Shown: piece after piece, positions 1 to 11,598 of the stretch
Numbering within the stretch: the first letter of the stretch is position 1
Layout of the letters: each line of letters begins with the position of its first letter
From: Vulcanimicrobiota bacterium
Lineage (GTDB): Bacteria; Vulcanimicrobiota; Vulcanimicrobiia; Vulcanimicrobiales; Vulcanimicrobiaceae
Length of the DNA: 11,598 nucleotides
Assembly (NCBI GenBank): GCA_003133025.1
Contig: PKZK01000080.1
Coordinates: forward strand, 485-12,082
Reading direction: 5' to 3'
Made by a program: the position numbers and the translations under genes
Notes under the pieces: model-generated
Seen by the model: the letters and a program-made list of their open reading frames with translations, nothing else
What the model was told of the DNA's origin: nothing
Databases searched by the model: none

Positions 1-554
1 TCCGGGCTGCCCCAGACGATGCCGAACCGTTCGCGCGCGTAGTTGCGGCGGCGCGCGTCGACGCGGTCGATCTCGGCCTTGGCACGCGCGGGCGTGAAGC
101 CGAAACTCTCGCACAAACGCTCGATGCGCCACGCTTTCGGTGCGGTGAGGAAGACGCGCAGGAGACCGGCGCTGCCCGCCAAGAGCACGCTGCCCATGCG
201 GCCGAGGATGACCACGTTCCCGGCGGCCGCCCGCTCGCGCACGCTCCGCTCGATCTCGCGCCGCACGTCGGCATCAAACGGATCCAGGACCGACGCGGGC
301 GGCGACCCGACCGCCTCCGGCGTCCCGGCCTCCAAGCCGCCGAGGACTCGCTCGGCCAGCGGCGGCTCGGCCCCCGCCCGGGCCGCCACCTCTTGCGGCG
401 AGGTGCCCAAGCGCGCTGCCACGGCCGTCGGGAGGTCGTCGGTCAGGAGAGCGTAGCCGAGCGCCTGCGCCACGCCGTCGGAGACGGCCAGGCCCGCCGC
501 CCCGTACTCTCGTGAAATGGTGACGATCACGAGGCGGCCCTTCGTGATGGTCAT
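1..554 (-). CDS. Cytidylate kinase-like family protein (Cytidylate_kin2 type), runs off the window's left edge
   Basis: Not in the ORF track because it has no stop in the window. Manual translation from ATG at 554 (alternative GTG at 530) gives [34 protein letters not shown]...[14 protein letters not shown]...[16 protein letters not shown]...[23 protein letters not shown]. This matches the family pattern ITISRxxGxxG / VIxGR / RVFLxA / DxxRxxY / W. Confidence 0.85.
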
Positions 555-616
555 CACCGAGGCCGCCCCCGGCCCGGAGTAGCGTTGGGGAAGCACTCGG
601 AGCCAGGGGTAGTTTC
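555..616. promoter_or_regulatory. Short divergent intergenic region expected to hold promoters for bchL and the cytidylate-kinase-like gene
   Basis: 62 nt between divergent start codons. Inferred from gene orientation only; no clear -35/-10 pair recognised. Confidence 0.35.
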
Positions 617-1453
617 ATGCTGAAGATCGCGGTTTACGGCAAGGGCGGAATCGGAAAGAGTACCTTCTCCTCGAATCTTTCCGCGGCGTTCGGCCGGCTC
701 GGCAACAAGACGATCCAAGTGGGTTGCGATCCCAAGCACGACTCGACGTTCACCTTGACGGGATCGCTGATCCCGACCGTGGTCGAGGTGCTGACCTCCT
801 ACAAATTCAAGGCCGAAGAGATCGAACGCGACGAGATCATCTTCAAGGGCAAGTACGGCGTCGATTGCGTCGAGGCGGGCGGCCCCCCGGCCGGCGCCGG
901 CTGCGGCGGCTACGTGGTCGGCGAGACGGTCAAGCTGCTCGAGAAGTTCGGCGTGTACAAGAGCTACGACGTGATGGTCTTCGACGTGCTCGGCGACGTG
1001 GTGTGCGGCGGCTTCTCGGCCCCGCTGCAGCACTCCGAGCAGGTCATCATCGTGGCCACCAACGACTTCGATTCGATCTTCGCGGCCAACCGCATCGCAA
1101 CGGCGATCACGATCAAGCAGAAGACCGGCGGCGGCACGCTCGCGGGCATCGTGGCCAATCGCGCCAGCAACGCCGAACTGGTCGGCCCGTTCGCCGAGCG
1201 CATCGGCTCGACGTGCCTGCTCTGCATCCCCGAGAACGACGGCGTGCGCAAGTCGCGGCTGACCGCGCAAACGGTCTTCGAAATGGACGCGACGGGCGCG
1301 CTCGGCGCACCCTGGATGGATCTGGCCAAACGCATGCTGGCCGGCGTTCCGCTGACCGTGCCGACGCCGATCCCCGAGCGCGAACTCTTCTCGCAGTTGG
1401 GCGCCGACTACGTGCGGCCGGCCGACATTCCAGCCCCCGCAATGGCGGTCTAG
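617..1453 (+). CDS. bchL: Light-independent protochlorophyllide reductase iron-sulfur ATP-binding subunit (BchL/ChlL; NifH/FrxC family)
   Basis: 278 aa. P-loop [24 protein letters not shown] (BchL-type, NifH has CDPKADSTR); [23 protein letters not shown] (Cys96, Tyr99; NifH has GGPEPGVGCAGRG); [11 protein letters not shown] (Cys130); [23 protein letters not shown]-terminal [10 protein letters not shown]-like AGGGGT at 605-610. Confidence 0.9.
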
Positions 1454-1509: not shown

Positions 1510-3385
<1,876 letters not shown>

Positions 3386-3396
<11 letters not shown>

Positions 3397-3769
3397 TTCC
3401 CAAACGCCGGTTCGCGCGACCGATGTGCTGGCCAACGAGAGAACGTATCTCGCCTATTTACGGTCGGCTTTGGCGCTCGTCGGCTTCGGCTTCGTGATCG
3501 CGCGCTTCAGTCTGTTCACGCGAGAGGTCGCCGAACTGACGGGACGCAAGCTTGCGCTCAACGGTTCGGCCTCGATCGTGCTCGGTGCGGTGATGGCCCT
3601 CTGCGGTATTGCTACCGCGCTCTTTGGAGCGTGGCGCTATGCCGAGACGGCACGCGGATTGCGGAGTGGACGCATCATCTCGCTCTCGCGAGGCCCCGTG
3701 GTCGTGAGCGCAATCGCGGTCTCACTCGTCTGCGCGGCCGTCGCCATCGATTTGCTCTTGGTACGCTGA
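3386..3769 (+). CDS. DUF202 / YidH-family small inner membrane protein
   Basis: 127 aa. Family signature LANERTYLAYLRSALALVGFG and three hydrophobic segments. Overlaps the GMC gene by 11 nt. Confidence 0.9.
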
Positions 3770-3804: not shown

Positions 3805-4692
3805 ATGGAAAAACTCGAGACGCCGAGTACCGACCGTCCCGTCGACCGGCTCGCGCGCTGGGCTCCGCTAGCCTCCGCTGCCGACGCTTGGCAGAGCGTC
3901 GTGAAGAAGGTGCTCGAGAGCGCGGGGCCCGCCGTCGTCGATGCGTTGCACGGCACGCCCCTCGGACATCCGCTGCATCCGCTGTTGACCGACGTGCCGG
4001 TCGGAGCGTGGACCGTCACCGCCGTGTTGGACGCCTTGGAACTCGCCGGAAAAGACGATTTGGCCGCGGGCGCCGACGCGTCGCTCGCGATCGGCATCGG
4101 CGGTGCGGTTCTGGCTGCGACCGCCGGCTGGGCCGACTGGTCCGACGCCGACGGCGAAGCCAAGAGCCTCGGCCTCGCGCACGCGGGGCTCAACGCCGTC
4201 GCGCTCGGCGCGTACGCGGCAGCGTTGCTGTTGCGCCGCAACGGCAACCGCGAGACGGGTATCGCGCTGGGCATGATCGGCTACGCGTTCGTGAGCGCGG
4301 CGGGATACTTGGGCGGCGAACTGTCCTTCGGCCGGGGGGTCGGCGTCCGGCAAACCGGCGAGCCGGTGACGCCTCCGACGGATTTCGTGACCGTGCTCGA
4401 TGCCGGCGAACTCGCGGAGGGTGCGATGCATCGCGTCGAGGCGCAGGGCGTGCCGGTGCTACTCTATCGCGAGGGCGAGACGATCTCCGCGCTCTCGGCG
4501 GTCTGCACGCATGCGGGCGGCCCGCTCGACGAAGGCAGCGTGAAGGACGGCTGCGTGACCTGTCCGTGGCACGGCTCGACCTTCCGTTTCAGCGACGGCG
4601 CGGCCGTGCACGGCCCGGCCGTCTTCCCCGTGTCGCGTTACGAGGCACGCATCGTCCAGGGAAAGATCCAGGTTCGCGCGCTCGCGGGTTGA
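3805..4692 (+). CDS. DUF2231-type membrane domain fused to a C-terminal Rieske [2Fe-2S] ferredoxin domain
   Basis: 295 aa. N-terminal LHGTPLGHPLHPLLTDVPVGAW, TAGWADW, HAGLN and GYLGGEL motifs within hydrophobic helices. Rieske ligands CTHAGG and CPWHGSTF; GPA motif near the C-terminus. Confidence 0.88.
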   Translation: MEKLETPSTDRPVDRLARWAPLASAADAWQSVVKKVLESAGPAVVDALHGTPLGHPLHPLLTDVPVGAWTVTAVLDALELAGKDDLAAGADASLAIGIGGAVLAATAGWADWSDADGEAKSLGLAHAGLNAVALGAYAAALLLRRNGNRETGIALGMIGYAFVSAAGYLGGELSFGRGVGVRQTGEPVTPPTDFVTVLDAGELAEGAMHRVEAQGVPVLLYREGETISALSAVCTHAGGPLDEGSVKDGCVTCPWHGSTFRFSDGAAVHGPAVFPVSRYEARIVQGKIQVRALAG

Positions 4693-4722: not shown

Positions 4723-5745
4723 ATGCCCATCATTCGCACCCACGATCTGCGTAAGGTGTTCAAGGCGCTCGACCGCACGCCGGGCGTCGCAGGCACGCTC
4801 AAGACGCTCTTCTCACGCACGTACGTGGAGCGCGTGGCCGTCGAGGGCATCAGCATGTCGCTCGAGGCCGGCGAACTGGTGGGGTACATCGGGCCCAACG
4901 GCGCGGGCAAGTCGACCACGATCAAGATGCTCACCGGCATCCTCGTGCCCTCGTCGGGCGAGATCGTGGTCGCGGGCCTCGTGCCGTACCGCGAGCGCAA
5001 GCGCAACGCGCGCAACATCGGCGTCGTCTTCGGGCAGCGCAGCCAACTCTATTGGGACCTACCGCTGATCGAGTCGTTCGAGCTGTTGCGCGCGATCTAC
5101 CACGTGCCCTACGATCGCTACCGGCAGAATCTCGCGGCCTTCAGCAAACTGCTCGACCTCGACAGCTTCATGAAGACGCCCGTCCGGCAACTGTCGCTCG
5201 GTCAGCGCATGCGCGGCGACTTCGCCGCGGCCATGCTGCACGATCCGAAGATCGTGTACCTCGATGAGCCCACGATCGGGCTCGACGTGGTGGCCAAGGA
5301 CGCCATTCGCACCTTCATCGCCGAGGTCAATCGCGAACGCGGCACGACCTTCATCCTGACCACCCACGACCTCGCCGACGTCGAACGGCTCTGCCGGCGC
5401 ATCGTGCTCATCGATCACGGCCGCATCGTGTACGACGGCGAGATCGAGACGCTCAAAGAGCAGTACGGCACGCACCGCACGCTGATCGTCGAGTTCTCGG
5501 AAGACTGCCCCGACGTCGCCGTGGACGGCGCCGAGATCGAATCGCGTGAAGGTCCGACGGTGCGCTATCGTTTCGACCGGCGCGCGATCAGCGCCGACCA
5601 ACTGATCCGGCGCGTCGCCGACGCCTATGCGATCAACGACGTTACGCTCGAGGAGCCGGAACTCGAGTCGATCATCAAGCGCATCTATCTCGAGGGCTAC
5701 GCGCGGCCGAACGACGCGACGCAGGCGAGCGCGGCCGCGCGCTGA
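4723..5745 (+). CDS. ABC-2 type (exporter class) ATP-binding protein, COG4586-like
   Basis: 340 aa. Walker A GPNGAGKST, VVFGQRSQLYWDLP, signature LSLGQRMR, Walker B IVYLDEPTIGLD, H-loop LTTHD. Confidence 0.93.
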   Translation: MPIIRTHDLRKVFKALDRTPGVAGTLKTLFSRTYVERVAVEGISMSLEAGELVGYIGPNGAGKSTTIKMLTGILVPSSGEIVVAGLVPYRERKRNARNIGVVFGQRSQLYWDLPLIESFELLRAIYHVPYDRYRQNLAAFSKLLDLDSFMKTPVRQLSLGQRMRGDFAAAMLHDPKIVYLDEPTIGLDVVAKDAIRTFIAEVNRERGTTFILTTHDLADVERLCRRIVLIDHGRIVYDGEIETLKEQYGTHRTLIVEFSEDCPDVAVDGAEIESREGPTVRYRFDRRAISADQLIRRVADAYAINDVTLEEPELESIIKRIYLEGYARPNDATQASAAAR

Positions 5746-6557
5746 TGGTCGCCTTCGCCCCGGGACGCTTCATCGAACCCTACGTCGAGTTCGCGCGTAA
5801 AGCGTTTTCGCGCGAAGCGACGTACCGCTTCGAGGTTTTGACCTCGATCGGCTCGCTCGTGCTACGCGTCTACTTGTTGCGTTCGGTCTGGACGGCGCTG
5901 TACGCACAGAACGCGGCGCCGGCCGACATCCCACTTCACTCGATGATCACCTATGCGACCGTGGCGCTCCTGATGTCGCTGATCCTCGAAGTCGACGGAA
6001 CGCGTTCGATCCGCGACAAGATTCGCGAGGGCACGATCGCGACCGACTTGATGAAGCCGATCGACCTGCCGCTCTACTTCTTCTCCGAAGGCTTCGGCCA
6101 GACGATGTTCCACGCGCTGACCATCCTGCCGTCGCTGCTGCTCGCGTTGCTGCTCGTGCACATCGACGTGCCGAGTCTCGCGACGCTGGCGGTGTTCGGA
6201 TCGTCGTTCGTGCTGGGCTATTTCGTCAACTTCTTTCTGAACTTCCTGATGAATTCGGTTGCCTTCTGGACGCTCGAAACGTTTGCGATCCAACTGATGG
6301 TGCGCTGGGCCTCCGACTTTTTGGGCGGTCAGATCTTGCCCTTGAGCTTCTTCCCGGGCGCCCTCGGCTGGATCGTCGAACGCTTGCCCTTCGCGGCGAT
6401 CTACTCGACGCCGCTGCGCATCTACATCGGCGAGTTGCCGCAATCGGCCTGGCCGGGCGCACTTGCCGCGCAAGCGTTGTGGCTGGCGATTTTCGCGGGG
6501 CTTTCCGTCGTGGTTTGGCGCGCGGCGTCGCGCCGCGTCGTGGTTCAAGGAGGTTGA
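5745..6557 (+). CDS. ABC-2 family permease (ABC2_membrane_6/DUF990, COG4587-like)
   Basis: 270 aa, about six hydrophobic segments. Motifs ATYRF, IREGTIATDLMKP, AFW, GGQILPLSFFP, LPF...P..IYIG and C-terminal VVQGG. TGATG overlap with the ATPase gene. Confidence 0.9.
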   Translation: MVAFAPGRFIEPYVEFARKAFSREATYRFEVLTSIGSLVLRVYLLRSVWTALYAQNAAPADIPLHSMITYATVALLMSLILEVDGTRSIRDKIREGTIATDLMKPIDLPLYFFSEGFGQTMFHALTILPSLLLALLLVHIDVPSLATLAVFGSSFVLGYFVNFFLNFLMNSVAFWTLETFAIQLMVRWASDFLGGQILPLSFFPGALGWIVERLPFAAIYSTPLRIYIGELPQSAWPGALAAQALWLAIFAGLSVVVWRAASRRVVVQGG

Positions 6558-6558
6558 G

Positions 6559-7917
6559 ATGGCCGACGAAGTCGACCTGATCGTCATCGGCAGCGGCCAA
6601 GGCGGCGTGCCGCTGGCGGCCGAGTTCGGCAAGGCCGGAAAGCGCGTGGTGCTCTTCGAGCGCGAGCGCCTCGGCGGCACGTGCGTCAACTTCGGCTGCA
6701 CGCCCTCGAAGGCGTTTCTCGCGTCGGCCCACGCCGCGGGCCGCGCGCGGCTCGCGGGCGATCGCCTGGGCGTGCACTGCGACGTGCACGTCGACCAGCG
6801 CGCCGTCATGCAGCGCGTGCGCGCCGTGCGTGACGAGTGGCATGCGGGCGTCGGGCCCAGACTCGAGCGCGCCGGCGTCGAGGTGGTGCTCGCGGATGCC
6901 GCGTTCACGGGCGAGCGCACCGTGCGCGGCGGCGAACGCGAGGTGCGCGCCAACGTCGTGGTCATCGACACGGGCACGAGCCCCGCGATTCCCCCGATCC
7001 CGGGTCTCGACGGCGTCCCGTATCTGACGAACAAGACGTTCTTCGATCAGGAGACGCTACCCGCGCGGCTCATCGTGCTCGGCGGCGGCTACGTCGGCCT
7101 CGAACTGGGCCAGGGCGCGCAGCGCTTGGGCAGCGCGGTCACGATCGTCGAAGGCGGCGCGCGACTGATGGCGCGCGAAGAAGCCGACGCGGCCGACGTG
7201 CTGCGCACGAGCCTCGAGCGCGACGGCGTGCAACTCGAACTCGGCGCGCACGCGAGCGCGATCGCCTACGACGGCTCGACCTATCGCGTGACGCTCGCTT
7301 CGGGCGAGGTGATCGAAGGCGACGGCTTGCTGATCGCGACCGGACGCACGCCGAATACGTCCGGGCTCGGACTCGAACGCAGCGGCATCGCAACGACGCA
7401 GAGCGGCACCGTGCAGGTCGACGAGCATCTCGAATCGACGTGCGCGGGCGTCTACGCAATCGGCGAGGCTGCCGGCCAGCCTGCATTCACGCACGTTGCG
7501 TGGGAAGATTACCGGCGACTGGCCTCGACGCTGGCCGGCACGCCGCGCCGCCGCGACGACCGGGTGCTCTCGTATTCGACGTTCACCGAGCCGCAACTCG
7601 GGCGCACGGGCCGAACGGAGGCCGAGGCGCGTGCCGCGGGCATCGACGCGCGCACGGTAACGCTGCAACTCTCGGAGGTCGCGCGCGGCGTCGAATGGGA
7701 TTTGGAACTCGGCTTCTTTCGCCTCGTCGTCGATAACGCGAACGGCAAGATGATCGGCGCGACGTTCGTGGGTTACGAGGCCGGCGAAATCGTGCAGGTG
7801 GTCGGCTTCGCCATCCAACTGGGCGCGACGGGGCGCCAACTCGACGACTTCGTAGCCATCCATCCGACGTTCGGCGAAGGCTTGCCCAGCCTCGCCCGAC
7901 TGTTGGAGAAAGCCTGA
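6559..7917 (+). CDS. Class I pyridine nucleotide-disulfide oxidoreductase (MerA-like/RclA-like, lacking MerA metal-handling cysteines)
   Basis: Start re-assigned to ATG at 6559 (SD AGGAGG at 6548-6553), giving 452 aa. DLIVIGSGQGG; redox disulfide GGTCVNFGCTPSK; GGGYVGLE; ATGRTPN; AFTH; C-terminal HPTFGE. Confidence 0.9.
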   Translation: MADEVDLIVIGSGQGGVPLAAEFGKAGKRVVLFERERLGGTCVNFGCTPSKAFLASAHAAGRARLAGDRLGVHCDVHVDQRAVMQRVRAVRDEWHAGVGPRLERAGVEVVLADAAFTGERTVRGGEREVRANVVVIDTGTSPAIPPIPGLDGVPYLTNKTFFDQETLPARLIVLGGGYVGLELGQGAQRLGSAVTIVEGGARLMAREEADAADVLRTSLERDGVQLELGAHASAIAYDGSTYRVTLASGEVIEGDGLLIATGRTPNTSGLGLERSGIATTQSGTVQVDEHLESTCAGVYAIGEAAGQPAFTHVAWEDYRRLASTLAGTPRRRDDRVLSYSTFTEPQLGRTGRTEAEARAAGIDARTVTLQLSEVARGVEWDLELGFFRLVVDNANGKMIGATFVGYEAGEIVQVVGFAIQLGATGRQLDDFVAIHPTFGEGLPSLARLLEKA

Positions 7918-7919
7918 AC

Positions 7920-9551
7920 TTGGCGCGCTCGCTCCTCACACGCCTCGCCGTAACCGCGACGCTCGCGTGCCTGTGCGCGTGCGCATCGTCCAAACCCGCA
8001 ACGCCGCACGCGGCGAAGACGCTGGTCTTTACGGGTTTGGCCGGCGAGCCCGACAACCTCAACCCGATGCTCTCGGGCAGCGCCGACCTCGACAGCTTCA
8101 GCCGCCTCTACATGTCGTATTTGGTCGATAGCGACGACCACGGACAGCTCGTCCCGGAGATCGCCGACCGCGTGCCCACGCAGGCCAACGGCGGCATCTC
8201 GGCCGACGGCAAGACGGTCGTCTATCACATCCGGCACGGCGTGCGTTGGCAAGACGGCGCGGCGCTGACCGCGCGCGATATCGTCTTCAGCCTCGAGGCG
8301 GTGCTGAACCCGGCCAACAACGTCGTAACCCGCGTCGGTTATAGCGAGGTCGCGAGCATCGCGGCGCACGGCGACGACCTCGTTACCGTACGGCTGAAAG
8401 AGCCGTTCGCTCCGTTCACAGCCTACTTCTTCGGACCGCAGGGCGGCGCCGCGTTGCTTCCGCAGCATCTGCTCGCGCGGTATCCCAACCTCAACCGCGT
8501 CACGTACAATCAGGCGCCGATCGGGGCCGGCCCGTACCGGGTGGTGAAGTGGCGTCACGCCGACTCGATCACCTTCGTCGCAAACCCGGCCTACTGGCGC
8601 GGGAAACCGTCGATCGACAAGATCGTCTACCGCATCGTGCCGGCGCCCAACACGCGCCTGCAGCAATTGCAGACGGGCGAAGTCGACGCGTACTTCGACG
8701 TGGATCCGCAACTCTTACCGCAATTGCGGGCCGTCCCCGGCGTGCACGTCGCGCTGACGCCGGTCAACGACATTCACGTGCTGCAATTCAACGTGCGCGA
8801 TCCCATCCTCGCCGACGCGCAACTGCGCCGGGCCATCTCGCTCGCGATCGACCGGCCGCAACTCTTGGCCGCCGCGACGCACGGCTCCGGGGTAACGGTC
8901 GACGCCGACCAGCCACGCAACGGCTGGGCCTACGATCCGAGCGTACCGCCGCTCCGCTACGACGTCGCCGCCGCGAAACGGCTGCTCGACGCCGACGGCT
9001 GGAAAGCCGGCCCGGGCGGCATCCGCACCAAAGACGGGCATCCCCTCGATCTCACCTTGACGATTTCGCCCCAAAGCACGAACGGCTCGACGCTCGTGGC
9101 GACGATTCTGCAGGCCAACCTGCGCACGCTCGGCGTCGACGTCACGATCAAGACGGTCACGCCGACGCTCTTCGTGGCGCCCGCCGCGTCGGGCGGCTTG
9201 CTCGCCGCGGGCAAGTACCAACTCGCCTACAACGCGTGGTGGGTGATCGGCCCCGACCCCGACGATACCTGGAACTTCGGCTGCGCCGAGATTCCGCCCA
9301 ACGGCTACAACTATTACTTCTGGTGCGACCATCGCGCCGACACGGCCATGTACGCCGCGCTGCGCACCTACGATCGGAAGCAACGCATCGCCGACTACGC
9401 CGTCGTGCAGCGGCGCATCGTCGACGATTTGCCCATCGTCGCGCTCTGGCAGGTGCGCATGCCCAATGCCTACCGCACGCGCCTGCACGGCGTCTCGCCG
9501 TCGCCGTTCGGCTCGATGTTCTGGAACGCGTGGACGTGGACGCTCGATTGA
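7920..9551 (+). CDS. ABC transporter substrate-binding lipoprotein, family 5 (OppA/DppA/NikA-like)
   Basis: 543 aa, TTG start, GGAG at 7905-7908. Signal peptide with probable lipobox LCAC (Cys21). Motifs EPDNLNP, NGGISADGKT, GVRWQDG, PIGAGPY, ANPAYWRGKP, LRRAISLAIDR, AKRLLDADGW. Confidence 0.9.
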   Translation: MARSLLTRLAVTATLACLCACASSKPATPHAAKTLVFTGLAGEPDNLNPMLSGSADLDSFSRLYMSYLVDSDDHGQLVPEIADRVPTQANGGISADGKTVVYHIRHGVRWQDGAALTARDIVFSLEAVLNPANNVVTRVGYSEVASIAAHGDDLVTVRLKEPFAPFTAYFFGPQGGAALLPQHLLARYPNLNRVTYNQAPIGAGPYRVVKWRHADSITFVANPAYWRGKPSIDKIVYRIVPAPNTRLQQLQTGEVDAYFDVDPQLLPQLRAVPGVHVALTPVNDIHVLQFNVRDPILADAQLRRAISLAIDRPQLLAAATHGSGVTVDADQPRNGWAYDPSVPPLRYDVAAAKRLLDADGWKAGPGGIRTKDGHPLDLTLTISPQSTNGSTLVATILQANLRTLGVDVTIKTVTPTLFVAPAASGGLLAAGKYQLAYNAWWVIGPDPDDTWNFGCAEIPPNGYNYYFWCDHRADTAMYAALRTYDRKQRIADYAVVQRRIVDDLPIVALWQVRMPNAYRTRLHGVSPSPFGSMFWNAWTWTLD

Positions 9552-9555
9552 GTAC

Positions 9556-10368
9556 TTACAGCGCCAATCGCGTCAGGAACGTCTCGTGGTTGTACGACGC
9601 CGAATCGCCGAACTTGACGACGACCGTCTTGCTCGGCGGATCGATGTAGAGCGCCTGGCCGCGCGCGCCGCTCGCGTAGACGAGCGCCGGTCTTGCGGCG
9701 ATCGGGCTCAGCCAAAAGCCGAGGCCGTAGCGCGGATTGGGCTTCGACCCGGTAAAGCACTCGGCGAAGCGCTCCGCGTTGTCGACGATGTAGCGGCCAT
9801 ATTTCAGCCATTCGCCCGCGCCGAGCTGCGCGCCGGTCGGTAACGGCTGCGTGCCGTCTTTGAGCGTGCGCCACGACGCGACGTGCAAGCCGATGGGGTC
9901 GAGGAGCTTCTCGGTCAGATACGCCTGCGGCGAGCGGCCGGCTTTGCGCGCGAAGACCGCGCCGAAGACCTGGAGCGGAATCCCGCCGTACGTGAACGTT
10001 TTGCCCGGTTCGTCCTTGAGTTGCGTCGCGATCGCGCGGTCGACCGTGGGTACCGCGTTGCCCAGGCCGCCGAAACCGATGCCGCTGGTCAGGTTGAGGA
10101 GTTGGCGCAAGGTCACGCGCGTGCGCACGCCGTCCTTCCACTCCCCGAGGGTCTTCGAGACCGGCTCGTCGAGTTCGAGCAGGCCCTCGTCGCGCGCGAT
10201 CACCGCAACGGCGCCCCAAAAACTCTTCGTGCCGCTGTACAACGCATGCGGCTTCTCGCGATCGAAACCGCCGGCGTAGCGTTCCAGCAGCACCTTGCCC
10301 GCGCGTTCGACGATCAGCGCTTCGAGCGTATGCCGGCGCGCGTACGTTTCGGCGGCTTCGAGATTCAT
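9556..10368 (-). CDS. Serine hydrolase, beta-lactamase-related (AmpC/NylB-like esterase/amidase)
   Basis: Start re-assigned to ATG at 10368 (ATGA overlap with the LysE stop), giving 270 aa. SxxK motif YSGTKS, VTLRQLLNLTSG, EPGKTFTYGG, YGLGFW, ASGARGQALYIDP. No signal peptide. Confidence 0.85.
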   Translation of the reverse strand: MNLEAAETYARRHTLEALIVERAGKVLLERYAGGFDREKPHALYSGTKSFWGAVAVIARDEGLLELDEPVSKTLGEWKDGVRTRVTLRQLLNLTSGIGFGGLGNAVPTVDRAIATQLKDEPGKTFTYGGIPLQVFGAVFARKAGRSPQAYLTEKLLDPIGLHVASWRTLKDGTQPLPTGAQLGAGEWLKYGRYIVDNAERFAECFTGSKPNPRYGLGFWLSPIAARPALVYASGARGQALYIDPPSKTVVVKFGDSASYNHETFLTRLAL

Positions 10369-10991
10369 CGGGCGACCGGGAGCGGCTCGCGCGCGATGCG
10401 CGAGGCGATCCAGAGCAGCGCAGCCCCGCCGCAGCGTTCGATCCACAGTGCGCCGCGCGCGGCCACCGAGCTGCGCCGCAAACGGTCGGCAGCGAGGGTG
10501 TAGCCCGAAAGCACGCTGAGTTCGACGACCGCCCCGGCCAGCGTCAAGACGGCGATCTGCGGCGCGAGCGCGGCACGGGGGTCCACGAACTGGGGCAGGA
10601 CGGCGGCAAAGAACACGATGGCTTTCGGGTTCGCGAGCTGGGTCACGAGACCGCTTGCGAAGGCCCTACCCGGCTCGCCGCGCGGCGCATCGGTCCGTTC
10701 GATCCGCGGCGCTTCGCGTGCGAACAACGCCCGCAGGCCGACGAACGCGAGGTACGCCGCACCCGCGTATTTGACGAACGTGAAGACTCGATACGAAGCG
10801 AGCAGGACGGCGACGATCCCGAGGCCGGAGAGGATGAAATACAGCGTGTTGCCGGCGAGTATGCCCGCGGCCGCGGCCAAACCGGCGCGCTTGCCCCGGC
10901 GCAGCGCGTACGACGTGGTCAGCAACACGGCCGGGCCCGGGATCAAGCACAGCGTCAGTTCCAGCAGCACGAACGCGGCGAGCGTATTCAT
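10365..10991 (-). CDS. LysE/RhtB family translocator (amino acid/homoserine lactone efflux)
   Basis: Start re-assigned to ATG at 10991, giving 208 aa. Motifs IPGPAVLL, KYAGAAYLAFVG, GLVTQLANPKAIVFF..LPQF; about six hydrophobic helices. Confidence 0.92.
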   Translation of the reverse strand: MNTLAAFVLLELTLCLIPGPAVLLTTSYALRRGKRAGLAAAAGILAGNTLYFILSGLGIVAVLLASYRVFTFVKYAGAAYLAFVGLRALFAREAPRIERTDAPRGEPGRAFASGLVTQLANPKAIVFFAAVLPQFVDPRAALAPQIAVLTLAGAVVELSVLSGYTLAADRLRRSSVAARGALWIERCGGAALLWIASRIAREPLPVAR

Positions 10992-11090
10992 CCTTCCAAC
11001 CTCTGGAGTGTGACCCGCGGCGGCCGGAGTGCTCCGTACCCCGCTCGAACGGGCAAGTGACCCCGATTCCCGATTGAGGAGCCCGAATCC

Positions 11091-11598
11091 ATGCAGCCAC
11101 GAACGACGACCGCGCTCGCCGCCCTGACGCTTGCGCTGCATGCGGCTACCCCGGCCGATGCGGCCTCAGCCCGGCTCCTGGCCTACTACGGATATTGGGA
11201 CCAGTGGAATTCGCCGGCCTATACGTCGGCCAACATCCCGTTCAACGAACTGACCCACATCATTCACGACGGCGTCGTGGTCGAAGCCAAGGGCACGGGC
11301 GCGATCAAGATTCCCAAGGGGTTTCTCGAGCCGGCTTTGCTCTCCAAAGCGCACGCCGCGGGCGATAAGGTCATCCTCAACGTCTCCGGAAGCGCCGGGG
11401 CTTTCGCCAAGGTTGCCGCCAACGCAAACGCGCGCACGGCGTTTGCGAACAACGCGCTGGCGCTCGTGAACAAGTACGGCTACGACGGCCTCGACATCGA
11501 TTGGGAGGTGCCGAGCGCAAAGGGTAAAGCCAACTGCACCGCCTTCTTCCAAGCGCTGCGCGCCGCGCTGCCCGCCGGTAAGTATTTGCTGACGCTCG
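11091..11598 (+). CDS. Secreted glycoside hydrolase family 18 (chitinase-like), runs off the window's right edge
   Basis: Not in the ORF track because it has no stop in the window. Manual translation: MQPRTTTALAALTLALHAATPADAASARLLAYYGYWDQW...IPFNELTHII...AHAAGDKVILNVSG...ARTAFANNALALVNKYGYDGLDIDWEVP. Catalytic DGLDIDWE at 11484-11507, Sec-type signal peptide, SD GAGGAG at 11076-11081. Confidence 0.9.
   Translation, partial: MQPRTTTALAALTLALHAATPADAASARLLAYYGYWDQWNSPAYTSANIPFNELTHIIHDGVVVEAKGTGAIKIPKGFLEPALLSKAHAAGDKVILNVSGSAGAFAKVAANANARTAFANNALALVNKYGYDGLDIDWEVPSAKGKANCTAFFQALRAALPAGKYLLTL

Follow-up and report, generated by a model that had tools for sequence, protein, structure and literature searches.

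The gene bchL encodes a subunit of DPOR, the enzyme that converts protochlorophyllide to chlorophyllide in the dark, and the question raised by the locus described here is why it should stand alone among genes unrelated to photosynthesis. The DNA analyzed is a stretch of 11,598 nucleotides (hereafter, the window; C78:485-12082) from a Vulcanimicrobiota bacterium whose assembly consists of 265 contigs and is 80% complete; throughout, C denotes contigs of this source assembly (G000), G, genomes of the family, L, loci, and X, sequencing runs. The original prediction, made from the sequence of the window, recognized the gene and its isolation and offered three explanations: a phototroph with DPOR genes split in an unusual way, a second, separately regulated bchL copy, or a BchL-like Fe protein that a non-phototroph has recruited to a different nitrogenase-like reductase, the last of which would be an undescribed system. 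The features of the window are listed in Table 1.

Table 1. Features of the window, with positions counted from its first nucleotide
Feature	Position	Strand	Remarks
Cytidylate-kinase-like gene	1..530	-	PF13189 (Cytidylate_kin2), E 9e-30; left marker of the bchL slot; runs into NN gap
Palindromic box GTGA-N6-TCAC(CG), CRP-type	544..559 (core 544-557)	.	predicted activator site; sole match in the window, 0.01 expected
Predicted -10 hexamer TAGCGT	580..585	+	36 nt after box start
Predicted transcription start	591..592	+	would place box centre at -41.5, with a 25-nt leader
Shine-Dalgarno-like AGGGG	605..609	+	from sequence
bchL	617..1453	+	short-form L subunit of DPOR, ATP-dependent, with [4Fe-4S] cluster; 278-aa ORF
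GMC oxidoreductase	1510..3396	+	backbone gene; retained in non-phototrophs G010 and G059
DUF202 membrane protein	3386..3769	+	profile match
DUF2231-Rieske protein	3805..4692	+	profile match
ABC ATPase	4723..5745	+	right marker of the bchL slot
ABC-2 permease 1	5745..6557	+	PF06182
FAD-dependent pyridine nucleotide-disulfide oxidoreductase	6559..7917	+	backbone
Peptide/nickel-type ABC substrate-binding protein	7920..9551	+	profile match
Serine hydrolase, beta-lactamase family	9559..10446	-	backbone; start not fixed
LysE/RhtB exporter	10368..11141	-	backbone; precedes pirin in G059; start not fixed
Glycoside hydrolase 18-like gene	~11031-11598		named by eye; cut by NN gap at right end

The identification of the gene itself stands. 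Its product scores 366.8 bits against the BchL equivalog profile TIGR01281 (cut-off 345.15) and falls under the cut-offs for CfbC (227.8 against 402), NifH (225.4 against 394.35), and BchX (200.2 against 331.2), and its top PDB matches are DPOR L proteins (E 4e-87), with the nitrogenase Fe protein at 6e-53. The motifs that the original prediction had reported as intact are in place, namely, the P-loop GKGGIGKST at residue 8, CDPKHDST at 37, GAGCGGY at 93, and NDFDSIF at 149, as are both cluster ligands, C96 and C130, which, like the P-loop, are invariant in all covered rows of a 28-row alignment. The patch D150-F151-D152, described as specific to BchL in passages of PMC7948495, is present in 28 of the 28 BchL rows. 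The P-loop, the two cluster cysteines, and this patch are shared with the DPOR L proteins of Rhodobacter sphaeroides (3FWY, 6UYK) and Prochlorococcus (2YNM). Unlike the Rhodobacter-type protein, the window BchL lacks the flexible, autoinhibitory N-terminal extension (residues 1-29; query residue 4 aligns to residue 51-55 of the tagged 3FWY/6UYK), and its gene lies outside a bchFNBHLM operon; the missing extension is no bar to membership in the BchL family because ChlL lacks it as well. The protein is 83-95% identical to the products of the 29 closest loci, of which 20 are labeled as Vulcanimicrobiota/Eremiobacterota or genera of that phylum (Lustribacter being one such genus), three carry no label, and six carry others; the next group consists of Chlorobi and Chloroflexi, at 50-54%. 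The product of 617-1453 is, then, almost certainly the L subunit of DPOR of a phototroph and, by analogy with established DPOR biochemistry, is predicted to support ATP-dependent protochlorophyllide reduction together with BchNB. As an aside, the six loci with other labels (L033, L034, L039, L045, L057, and L059), titled Rhodospirillales, Janthinobacterium, Armatimonadota, or Alphaproteobacteria, carry the same bchL at 89-94% identity, and five of them share the kinase-like neighbor; the odd titles are probably submitter labels.

The isolation of the gene was also borne out. It is flanked by a divergent cytidylate-kinase-like gene, as originally described, and by seven co-directional non-photosynthetic genes separated by gaps of -11 to 56 nt. 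Among the 10 other window proteins scanned, there were no members of the bch, chl, puf, or nif families and no carotenoid families above cut-off; a weak carotenoid-isomerase match of the GMC protein reflects its FAD motif only. Nor does a bch cluster adjoin the window on the left, where the 484 remaining bases of the contig hold an MFS-like gene.

The partners of BchL are encoded elsewhere in the genome. There is one bchL, no bchX-level match, and only two Oxidored_nitro (NifD/K-like) genes, bchN and bchB, which lie on C45 with bchG and bchP behind them. BchN passes NF002768 (399 against 324) and scores slightly below TIGR01279 (418.2 against 419.95); BchB, BchG, BchP, and AcsF each exceed a family cut-off, and C15, C40, and C99 of BchN and D36 of BchB align to the equivalent residues of the solved DPOR. 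The pair bchM-acsF and a fused bchID were found on C92 and C216, bchH on C216 and C34, both bchH and bchID being divided between contigs, and a crtP-like gene with crtB at the end of C163; bchM, bchH, bchID, crtB, and the crtP-like gene are 69-82% identical to those of relatives. Thus, of the type II phototroph set of Vulcanimicrobiota, bchHID, bchM, acsF, bchLNB, bchG, and bchP are present. An Rfam scan of C45 yielded no matches. In G059, the gene order of the window is followed by pirin, which is the first gene of C45, and C78 therefore likely adjoins C45; this join, drawn from synteny, would put bchL at least ~27 kb from bchN. Synteny also points to the likely partner of ABC-2 permease 1, on C45 upstream of bchN, both proteins being PF06182 members. 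In a side observation, a RuBisCO-like protein is encoded in the backbone of G023 (L025:19091-19999) and in three loci without bch genes (L206, L207, and L224), and C232 of the present genome encodes a 64% homologue.

Several photosynthesis genes, namely, bchF, bchC, bchX, bchY, bchZ, and pufLMC, along with the gene for the regulator CRP-B discussed below, were not found in the 80%-complete assembly. In G023, the missing genes form a single block between the genes at the right end of C45 and crtB. C45 stops inside an NYN-like gene, and L150, 97% identical to C45, runs on into hemL. The window stretch was found in peat, moss, and permafrost metagenomes, with 14 runs holding at least half of its words, and single contigs of X1 (3010 bp) and X2 (2970 bp), aligned to the nearest relative L153, bridge hemL to bchZ. 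The depth of the X1 contig is 8.9, with 7-11 for this organism, and of the nine substitutions listed in the L150-covered hemL stretch, eight match L150 and one lies in a shifted gap. Among the missing genes, the reads recovered only bchZ, the contigs not extending to puf, and two near-identical metagenome contigs among the matches listed end before bchZ. Since the non-photosynthetic hemL is itself absent from the assembly and the matching contigs continue into bchZ, an assembly gap is the most likely reason for the missing bch and puf genes, and the source organism is likely a bacteriochlorophyll phototroph of Vulcanimicrobiota.

Two other readings of the isolated gene have to be weighed against this one. 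Phototrophy might be decaying in this lineage, with bchFCXYZ and puf lost, acsF inactivated, and bchL a relic, a course that the close relatives G010 and G059, which did lose phototrophy, make conceivable. Apart from the absences from the assembly, the signs of decay are an in-frame TAA in acsF (C92:13970; L120:1600) and stops in seven of the 58 strong alignments to the assembly, several of which run across gene ends or spurious frames. However, near-identical contigs from X3 and X5 have CAA (Gln) as the acsF codon, the X1 sequence being interrupted at this position, the NN gap that cuts bchM at C92:13303 is bridged with 57 letters by an X5 contig, bchZ and hemL speak for a gap as just described, the dN/dS of bchL against six relatives is ~0.05-0.08, and the promoter boxes described below are intact at four promoters; decay is, accordingly, very improbable. 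Still harder to credit, to the point of near dismissal, are the remaining explanations of the original prediction, in which a non-phototroph would have co-opted the Fe protein for a different nitrogenase-like reductase or the genome would hold a further bchL copy under its own regulation. The assembly contains no reaction centre, and the uncharacterized actinobacterial BchNB relatives mentioned in passages of PMC11194577 show that DPOR-like enzymes occur in non-phototrophs; against this, the only NifD/K-like proteins here are BchN and BchB, encoded beside bchG-bchP, bchL is single, and all 23 relatives with the same bchL have pufLM. The first of the three explanations holds in part: the DPOR genes are split, in a phototroph, but the layout is not unusual. 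A single bchL with bchNB elsewhere in the genome is what the original prediction had equated with mere dispersed gene order, and because the gene and its isolation are ordinary for the lineage, the proposed new reductase system falls away.

How ordinary this arrangement is becomes apparent from a survey of the family, which covered 234 other genomes at least 85% complete (G018 and G020 are possibly non-matching rows in the 234-genome tallies, and the 41-genome tallies include G008, G018, G020, and G036, although no conclusion depends on any one of these four). We identified bchL in 23 of the 234, in one case partial, pufLM in exactly these 23, and bchB in 23 of 23; a second, BchX-like match, present in all 23, is named from its position after bchF-bchC, not from a TIGR02016 score. 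In 23 of the 29 close bchL loci, some of which end soon after the gene, no bchN stands behind bchL, and the other six read bchL-N-B-G-P. When bchL and bchB share a contig, which is the case in 15 genomes, the distance between them is 14-57 kb in 12 and 1.3 kb in the other three. The layout is already in print: for Vulcanimicrobium alpinum WC8-2 and Eremiobacterota MAGs, passages of PMC9758169 and PMC6664022 describe bchL apart from bchNBGP with non-photosynthetic genes between them, a bchM-acsF pair, and a fused bchID, as observed here. The former text places bchNBGP and bchFCXYZ sub-clusters downstream of bchL in the isolate and MAGs, and the latter speaks of intermixed photosynthesis genes in a fairly constant order. 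In PMC12654162, the genes are called randomly distributed. The lone bchL is an ordinary gene of a published layout, and its isolation is normal for the lineage. By comparison, the Chlorobi and Chloroflexi, whose BchL is likewise of the short form, differ in having bchL next to bchB or within ~1.5 kb of it in 47 of 51 loci; separately, three Chloroflexales loci (L063, L067, and L085) show no bchN or bchB in the fetched upstream sequence of up to 10 kb, that is, a lone bchL there too, and one more has too little flank.

The comparison of relatives further reveals that the split genes occupy fixed positions. The bchL slot is bounded by the kinase-like gene on one side and by the ABC ATPase or GMC gene on the other. 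In 18 genomes, all phototrophs, it is occupied, and the kinase-like gene adjoins bchL; at the empty sites, that gene adjoins the ABC ATPase or the GMC gene, the slot being a spacer of 17-80 nt in 19 of 20 other genomes. Non-phototrophs likewise have nothing in the bchNBGP slot, which lies between RsbW and an M28 peptidase. A search for bchL remnants in 20 backbone regions, of which 19 came from genomes lacking bchL and one from the phototroph G021, away from its bchL, yielded none. G010 and G059, which are 96-97% complete and lack bchL, bchB, acsF, and puf, nest among phototrophs in the trees of rpoB (AU p 2e-4) and the backbone genes (AU p 5e-20), so that phototrophs do not form one clade in either; the species tree in question comprises rpoB and four backbone genes in quick searches with 17-43 selected rows, and four of the 24 phototrophs lack enough rpoB. 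For split-type BchLNB, 12 of 14 splits recur in rpoB, a fraction that drops to 9 of 17 when the compact types are added. The placement of the present genome differs between BchLNB and rpoB, but not significantly (p 0.19).

The compact bchLNBGP arrangement has a different history. The compact genomes, three in number and each from a different genus, do not form a clade in rpoB (p 6e-48), but their BchLNB form one clade (support 100) that pulls G192 away from its congener G191 (p 6e-6); BchL alone, which is too conserved, does not group them, and the concatenated BchLNB was used for this reason. In G147 and G192, the native slots are empty and the compact cassette lies elsewhere, with a second crtB in G147. 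Monophyly of the split type is rejected at AU p 0.013 and 0.014 with a very long outgroup branch and a mixture-model likelihood gap of only 2.4, which lends weak support to a split-to-compact direction. It seems likely that the scattered layout was already present in the ancestor of that part of the family in which phototrophs occur and was passed down with repeated loss, while the compact cassette would have spread sideways by transfer. As a separate observation, G231 (C77, L374, and C185, L358) has a native bchB in two frames and a cassette-type bchB-G-P on a 2.7-kb contig, a pair that could represent a replacement in progress or contamination and assembly error.

The sequence upstream of bchL bears on how the lone gene may be coordinated with the other pigment genes. 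A box of the form GTGA-N6-TCAC, the core of the canonical CRP site, precedes 28 of 28 bchL, 14 of 14 bchH, 7 of 7 bchM, and 24 of 24 bchF genes (distinct upstream sequences, all fetched loci), counts that come from related genomes and not from independent sequences. It occurs before 13 of 19 bchN genes, in 13 of the 13 that are split from bchL and none of the six that are joined to it and sit directly behind it. By contrast, for seven backbone genes, the box is present in a single one of the 379 regions upstream, and spacers of 5 or 7 give 0; the box was also absent before bchID (0/7), crtP (0/4), bchX (0/15), CRP-A (0/4), and CRP-B (0/27). Across 70 box sites, an xAxxxT hexamer follows the box start by 36 nt in 49 cases and by 37 nt in 22, with 0-1 at +34, +35, and +38. 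In 13 of the 70, the start codon is at +48 from the box start, a leaderless-looking spacing; should those mRNAs be leaderless, the box would be centred at -41.5. Class II activators bind at about this distance (site centre ~41.5 nt upstream of the start), according to passages of PMC11850224, and in its geometry, an N6 palindrome at -41.5 with a -10 hexamer, the bchL promoter fits the class II CRP/FNR architecture. A sigma-70 scan of 400-1700 detected neither a promoter nor a terminator, the former because the bchL promoter has no -35. The core of the box is not enriched genome-wide (21 matches against 12-71 for other spacings), and the present genome has six sites of the full architecture, four of them at bchL, bchN, bchM, and bchH and two away from bch genes, and three complete phototroph relatives have 6-7 each, four at bch promoters and 2-3 elsewhere, compared with 0 and 2 in two non-phototrophs (2 in G006). 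We consider it very probable that the box is a shared CRP-family promoter element, and its position suggests, at the level of sequence, a class II activator site centred at -41.5. The "separately regulated" bchL of the original prediction thus survives insofar as the gene has its own promoter, but not as regards the control, the box being shared with bchN, bchH, bchM, and bchF. Incidentally, the box begins 14 nt away from where the divergent kinase-like gene starts (window 530-557) and contains an in-frame ATG of that gene, which, given this proximity and overlap, may also be affected.

Two CRP-family proteins are candidate regulators. CRP-B (226 aa; recognition helix R-E-T-V-S-R), the gene of which lies between bchF and pufC and, in this genome, falls in the assembly gap, occurs in all 23 phototrophs and in none of the 211 other genomes. 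CRP-A (360 aa; G000 C92:11628-12707, L382:667-1746), encoded upstream of bchM in 22 of 23 phototrophs and 0 of 211 others, combines an NtcA-type helix, R-V-T-V-T-R, with a 145-aa N-terminal domain without a Pfam match, for which there is only a weak RsbRD_N lead (score 0.76). At the helix position that separates the two families, where, in passages of PMC11850224, V in place of E distinguishes NtcA from CRP recognition, CRP-B has Glu and CRP-A has Val. The helix of CRP-A predicts an NtcA-type box, and the puf regions agree with this prediction: 22 of 23 puf upstream regions contain a GTA-N8-TAC box (shuffles gave a mean of 2.2 and a maximum of 6, and a 9-nt spacer gave 9), and none of the bch promoters has one. 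The puf box lies 387-870 nt upstream of pufL (L438-L457), in most cases with a -10-like hexamer 36-37 nt on. Paralogues of CRP-A were observed beside extra puf copies. From co-occurrence and helix sequence, CRP-B is the rather probable, if still candidate, protein that binds the GTGA-N6-TCAC box. A phototroph-specific CRP-family activator at 544-557 would switch on bchL together with bchN, bchH, bchM, and bchF, and BchL would then act as the ATP-driven electron donor to the BchN-BchB encoded on C45. We hold with good confidence the overall reading that this is the single bchL of a Vulcanimicrobiota phototroph, with its partner BchNB on C45 and co-activation via a CRP-family box.

Neither the regulatory nor the historical part of this reading is without competitors. 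The box might be read by the general CRP encoded on C95, whose helix, R-E-T-V-N-R, is similar, or by the larger CRP-A beside bchM, or it might be a repressor site. The canonical character of the core, the nine HTH_Crp_2 matches over cut-off in this genome, and the equally phototroph-specific occurrence of CRP-A all leave some room for such a binder; yet, CRP-A has V for E in its helix and its type of box at puf, not at bch promoters, and the fixed -41.5 geometry without a -35 at the bchL promoter fits activation, which makes these alternatives, taken together, unlikely. A distinctly smaller chance attaches to the idea that the split layout passed horizontally from genus to genus as one whole region, without inheritance and loss. 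Ward et al. 2019 favor transfer within the phylum, passages of PMC6664022 report incongruent trees, inheritance requires many losses, given that only 23 of the 234 family genomes are phototrophs, and transfer is real for the compact cassette. On the other side, the backbone genes that flank the slots follow rpoB, with non-phototrophs nested, split-type BchLNB follows rpoB as well, and separate slots would have to be filled repeatedly at identical positions. The evidence thus favors inheritance with loss, supplemented by cassette transfer, over the transfer-only reading of PMC6664022, and this history agrees with the vertical view taken at the order level in passages of PMC11194577. A more far-reaching scenario, which we offer tentatively and somewhat short of an even call, has photosynthesis in Vulcanimicrobiota under a pair of dedicated CRP-family activators: one would act at every pigment-synthesis promoter, the other, NtcA-like and equipped with an extra sensor domain, at puf. 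Under such a regulon, bchL could have stood by itself in the ancestral chromosome, and the bchLNBGP operon would be derived, having formed in a mobile cassette that dropped the bchN promoter and returned phototrophy to lineages that had lost it.

The closest known parallel to the proposed control involves FnrL/CrpK of R. sphaeroides, where, in passages of PMC4263372, pigment genes are under CRP/FNR-family control via an N6-spaced palindrome; activator sites ~41.5 nt upstream of the start are likewise a feature of the CRP class II and NtcA promoters in the text of PMC11850224. The FnrL/CrpK site is TGA-N6-TCA, compared with GTGA-N6-TCAC with G/C flanks here, and, unlike in that system, the candidate regulators here are confined to the lineage, and puf has a separate box of the NtcA type. 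The passages of PMC9758169 and PMC6664022 contain no promoter box, regulators, empty slots, or compact cassette, their supplementary maps (Fig. S2, Fig. S7) lying outside the comparison, and the main text of Yabe has 0 matches for regulator, Crp, Fnr, or promoter. A literature search largely outside subscription journals and supplementary maps returned no description of the box, of its regulators, or of the slots, and we regard the box regulon and the slot history as a moderate addition to the published split layout. The box offers a direct test of photosynthesis gene control in a phylum that has a cultured member and for which no regulator is described in the literature searched; being shared, it likely lets one dedicated regulator switch on the scattered pigment genes together. 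The fixed slots, in turn, provide a synteny test of transfer versus loss of phototrophy inside Eremiobacterota, and the answer here appears to be both, the scattered form inherited with loss and the compact cassette transferred.

Some phototrophs of the family show additional gene copies. Duplicated puf operons are 99.5% identical over 3 kb in G004 (L114, L116), and have equal scores in G054, G058, and G147, the last with three copies. G004 also encodes, besides the fused bchID, a second chelatase set consisting of separate bchI and bchD with a bchH (L020:2-3818), alongside a second bchF-like gene. Finally, a NifH-like gene with four NifD/K/E/N-like genes was found in two phototrophs (G004 C1:1069571-1077286; G014 C7:309699-320167), with further NifH-level matches in G054, G057, G147, and G228.
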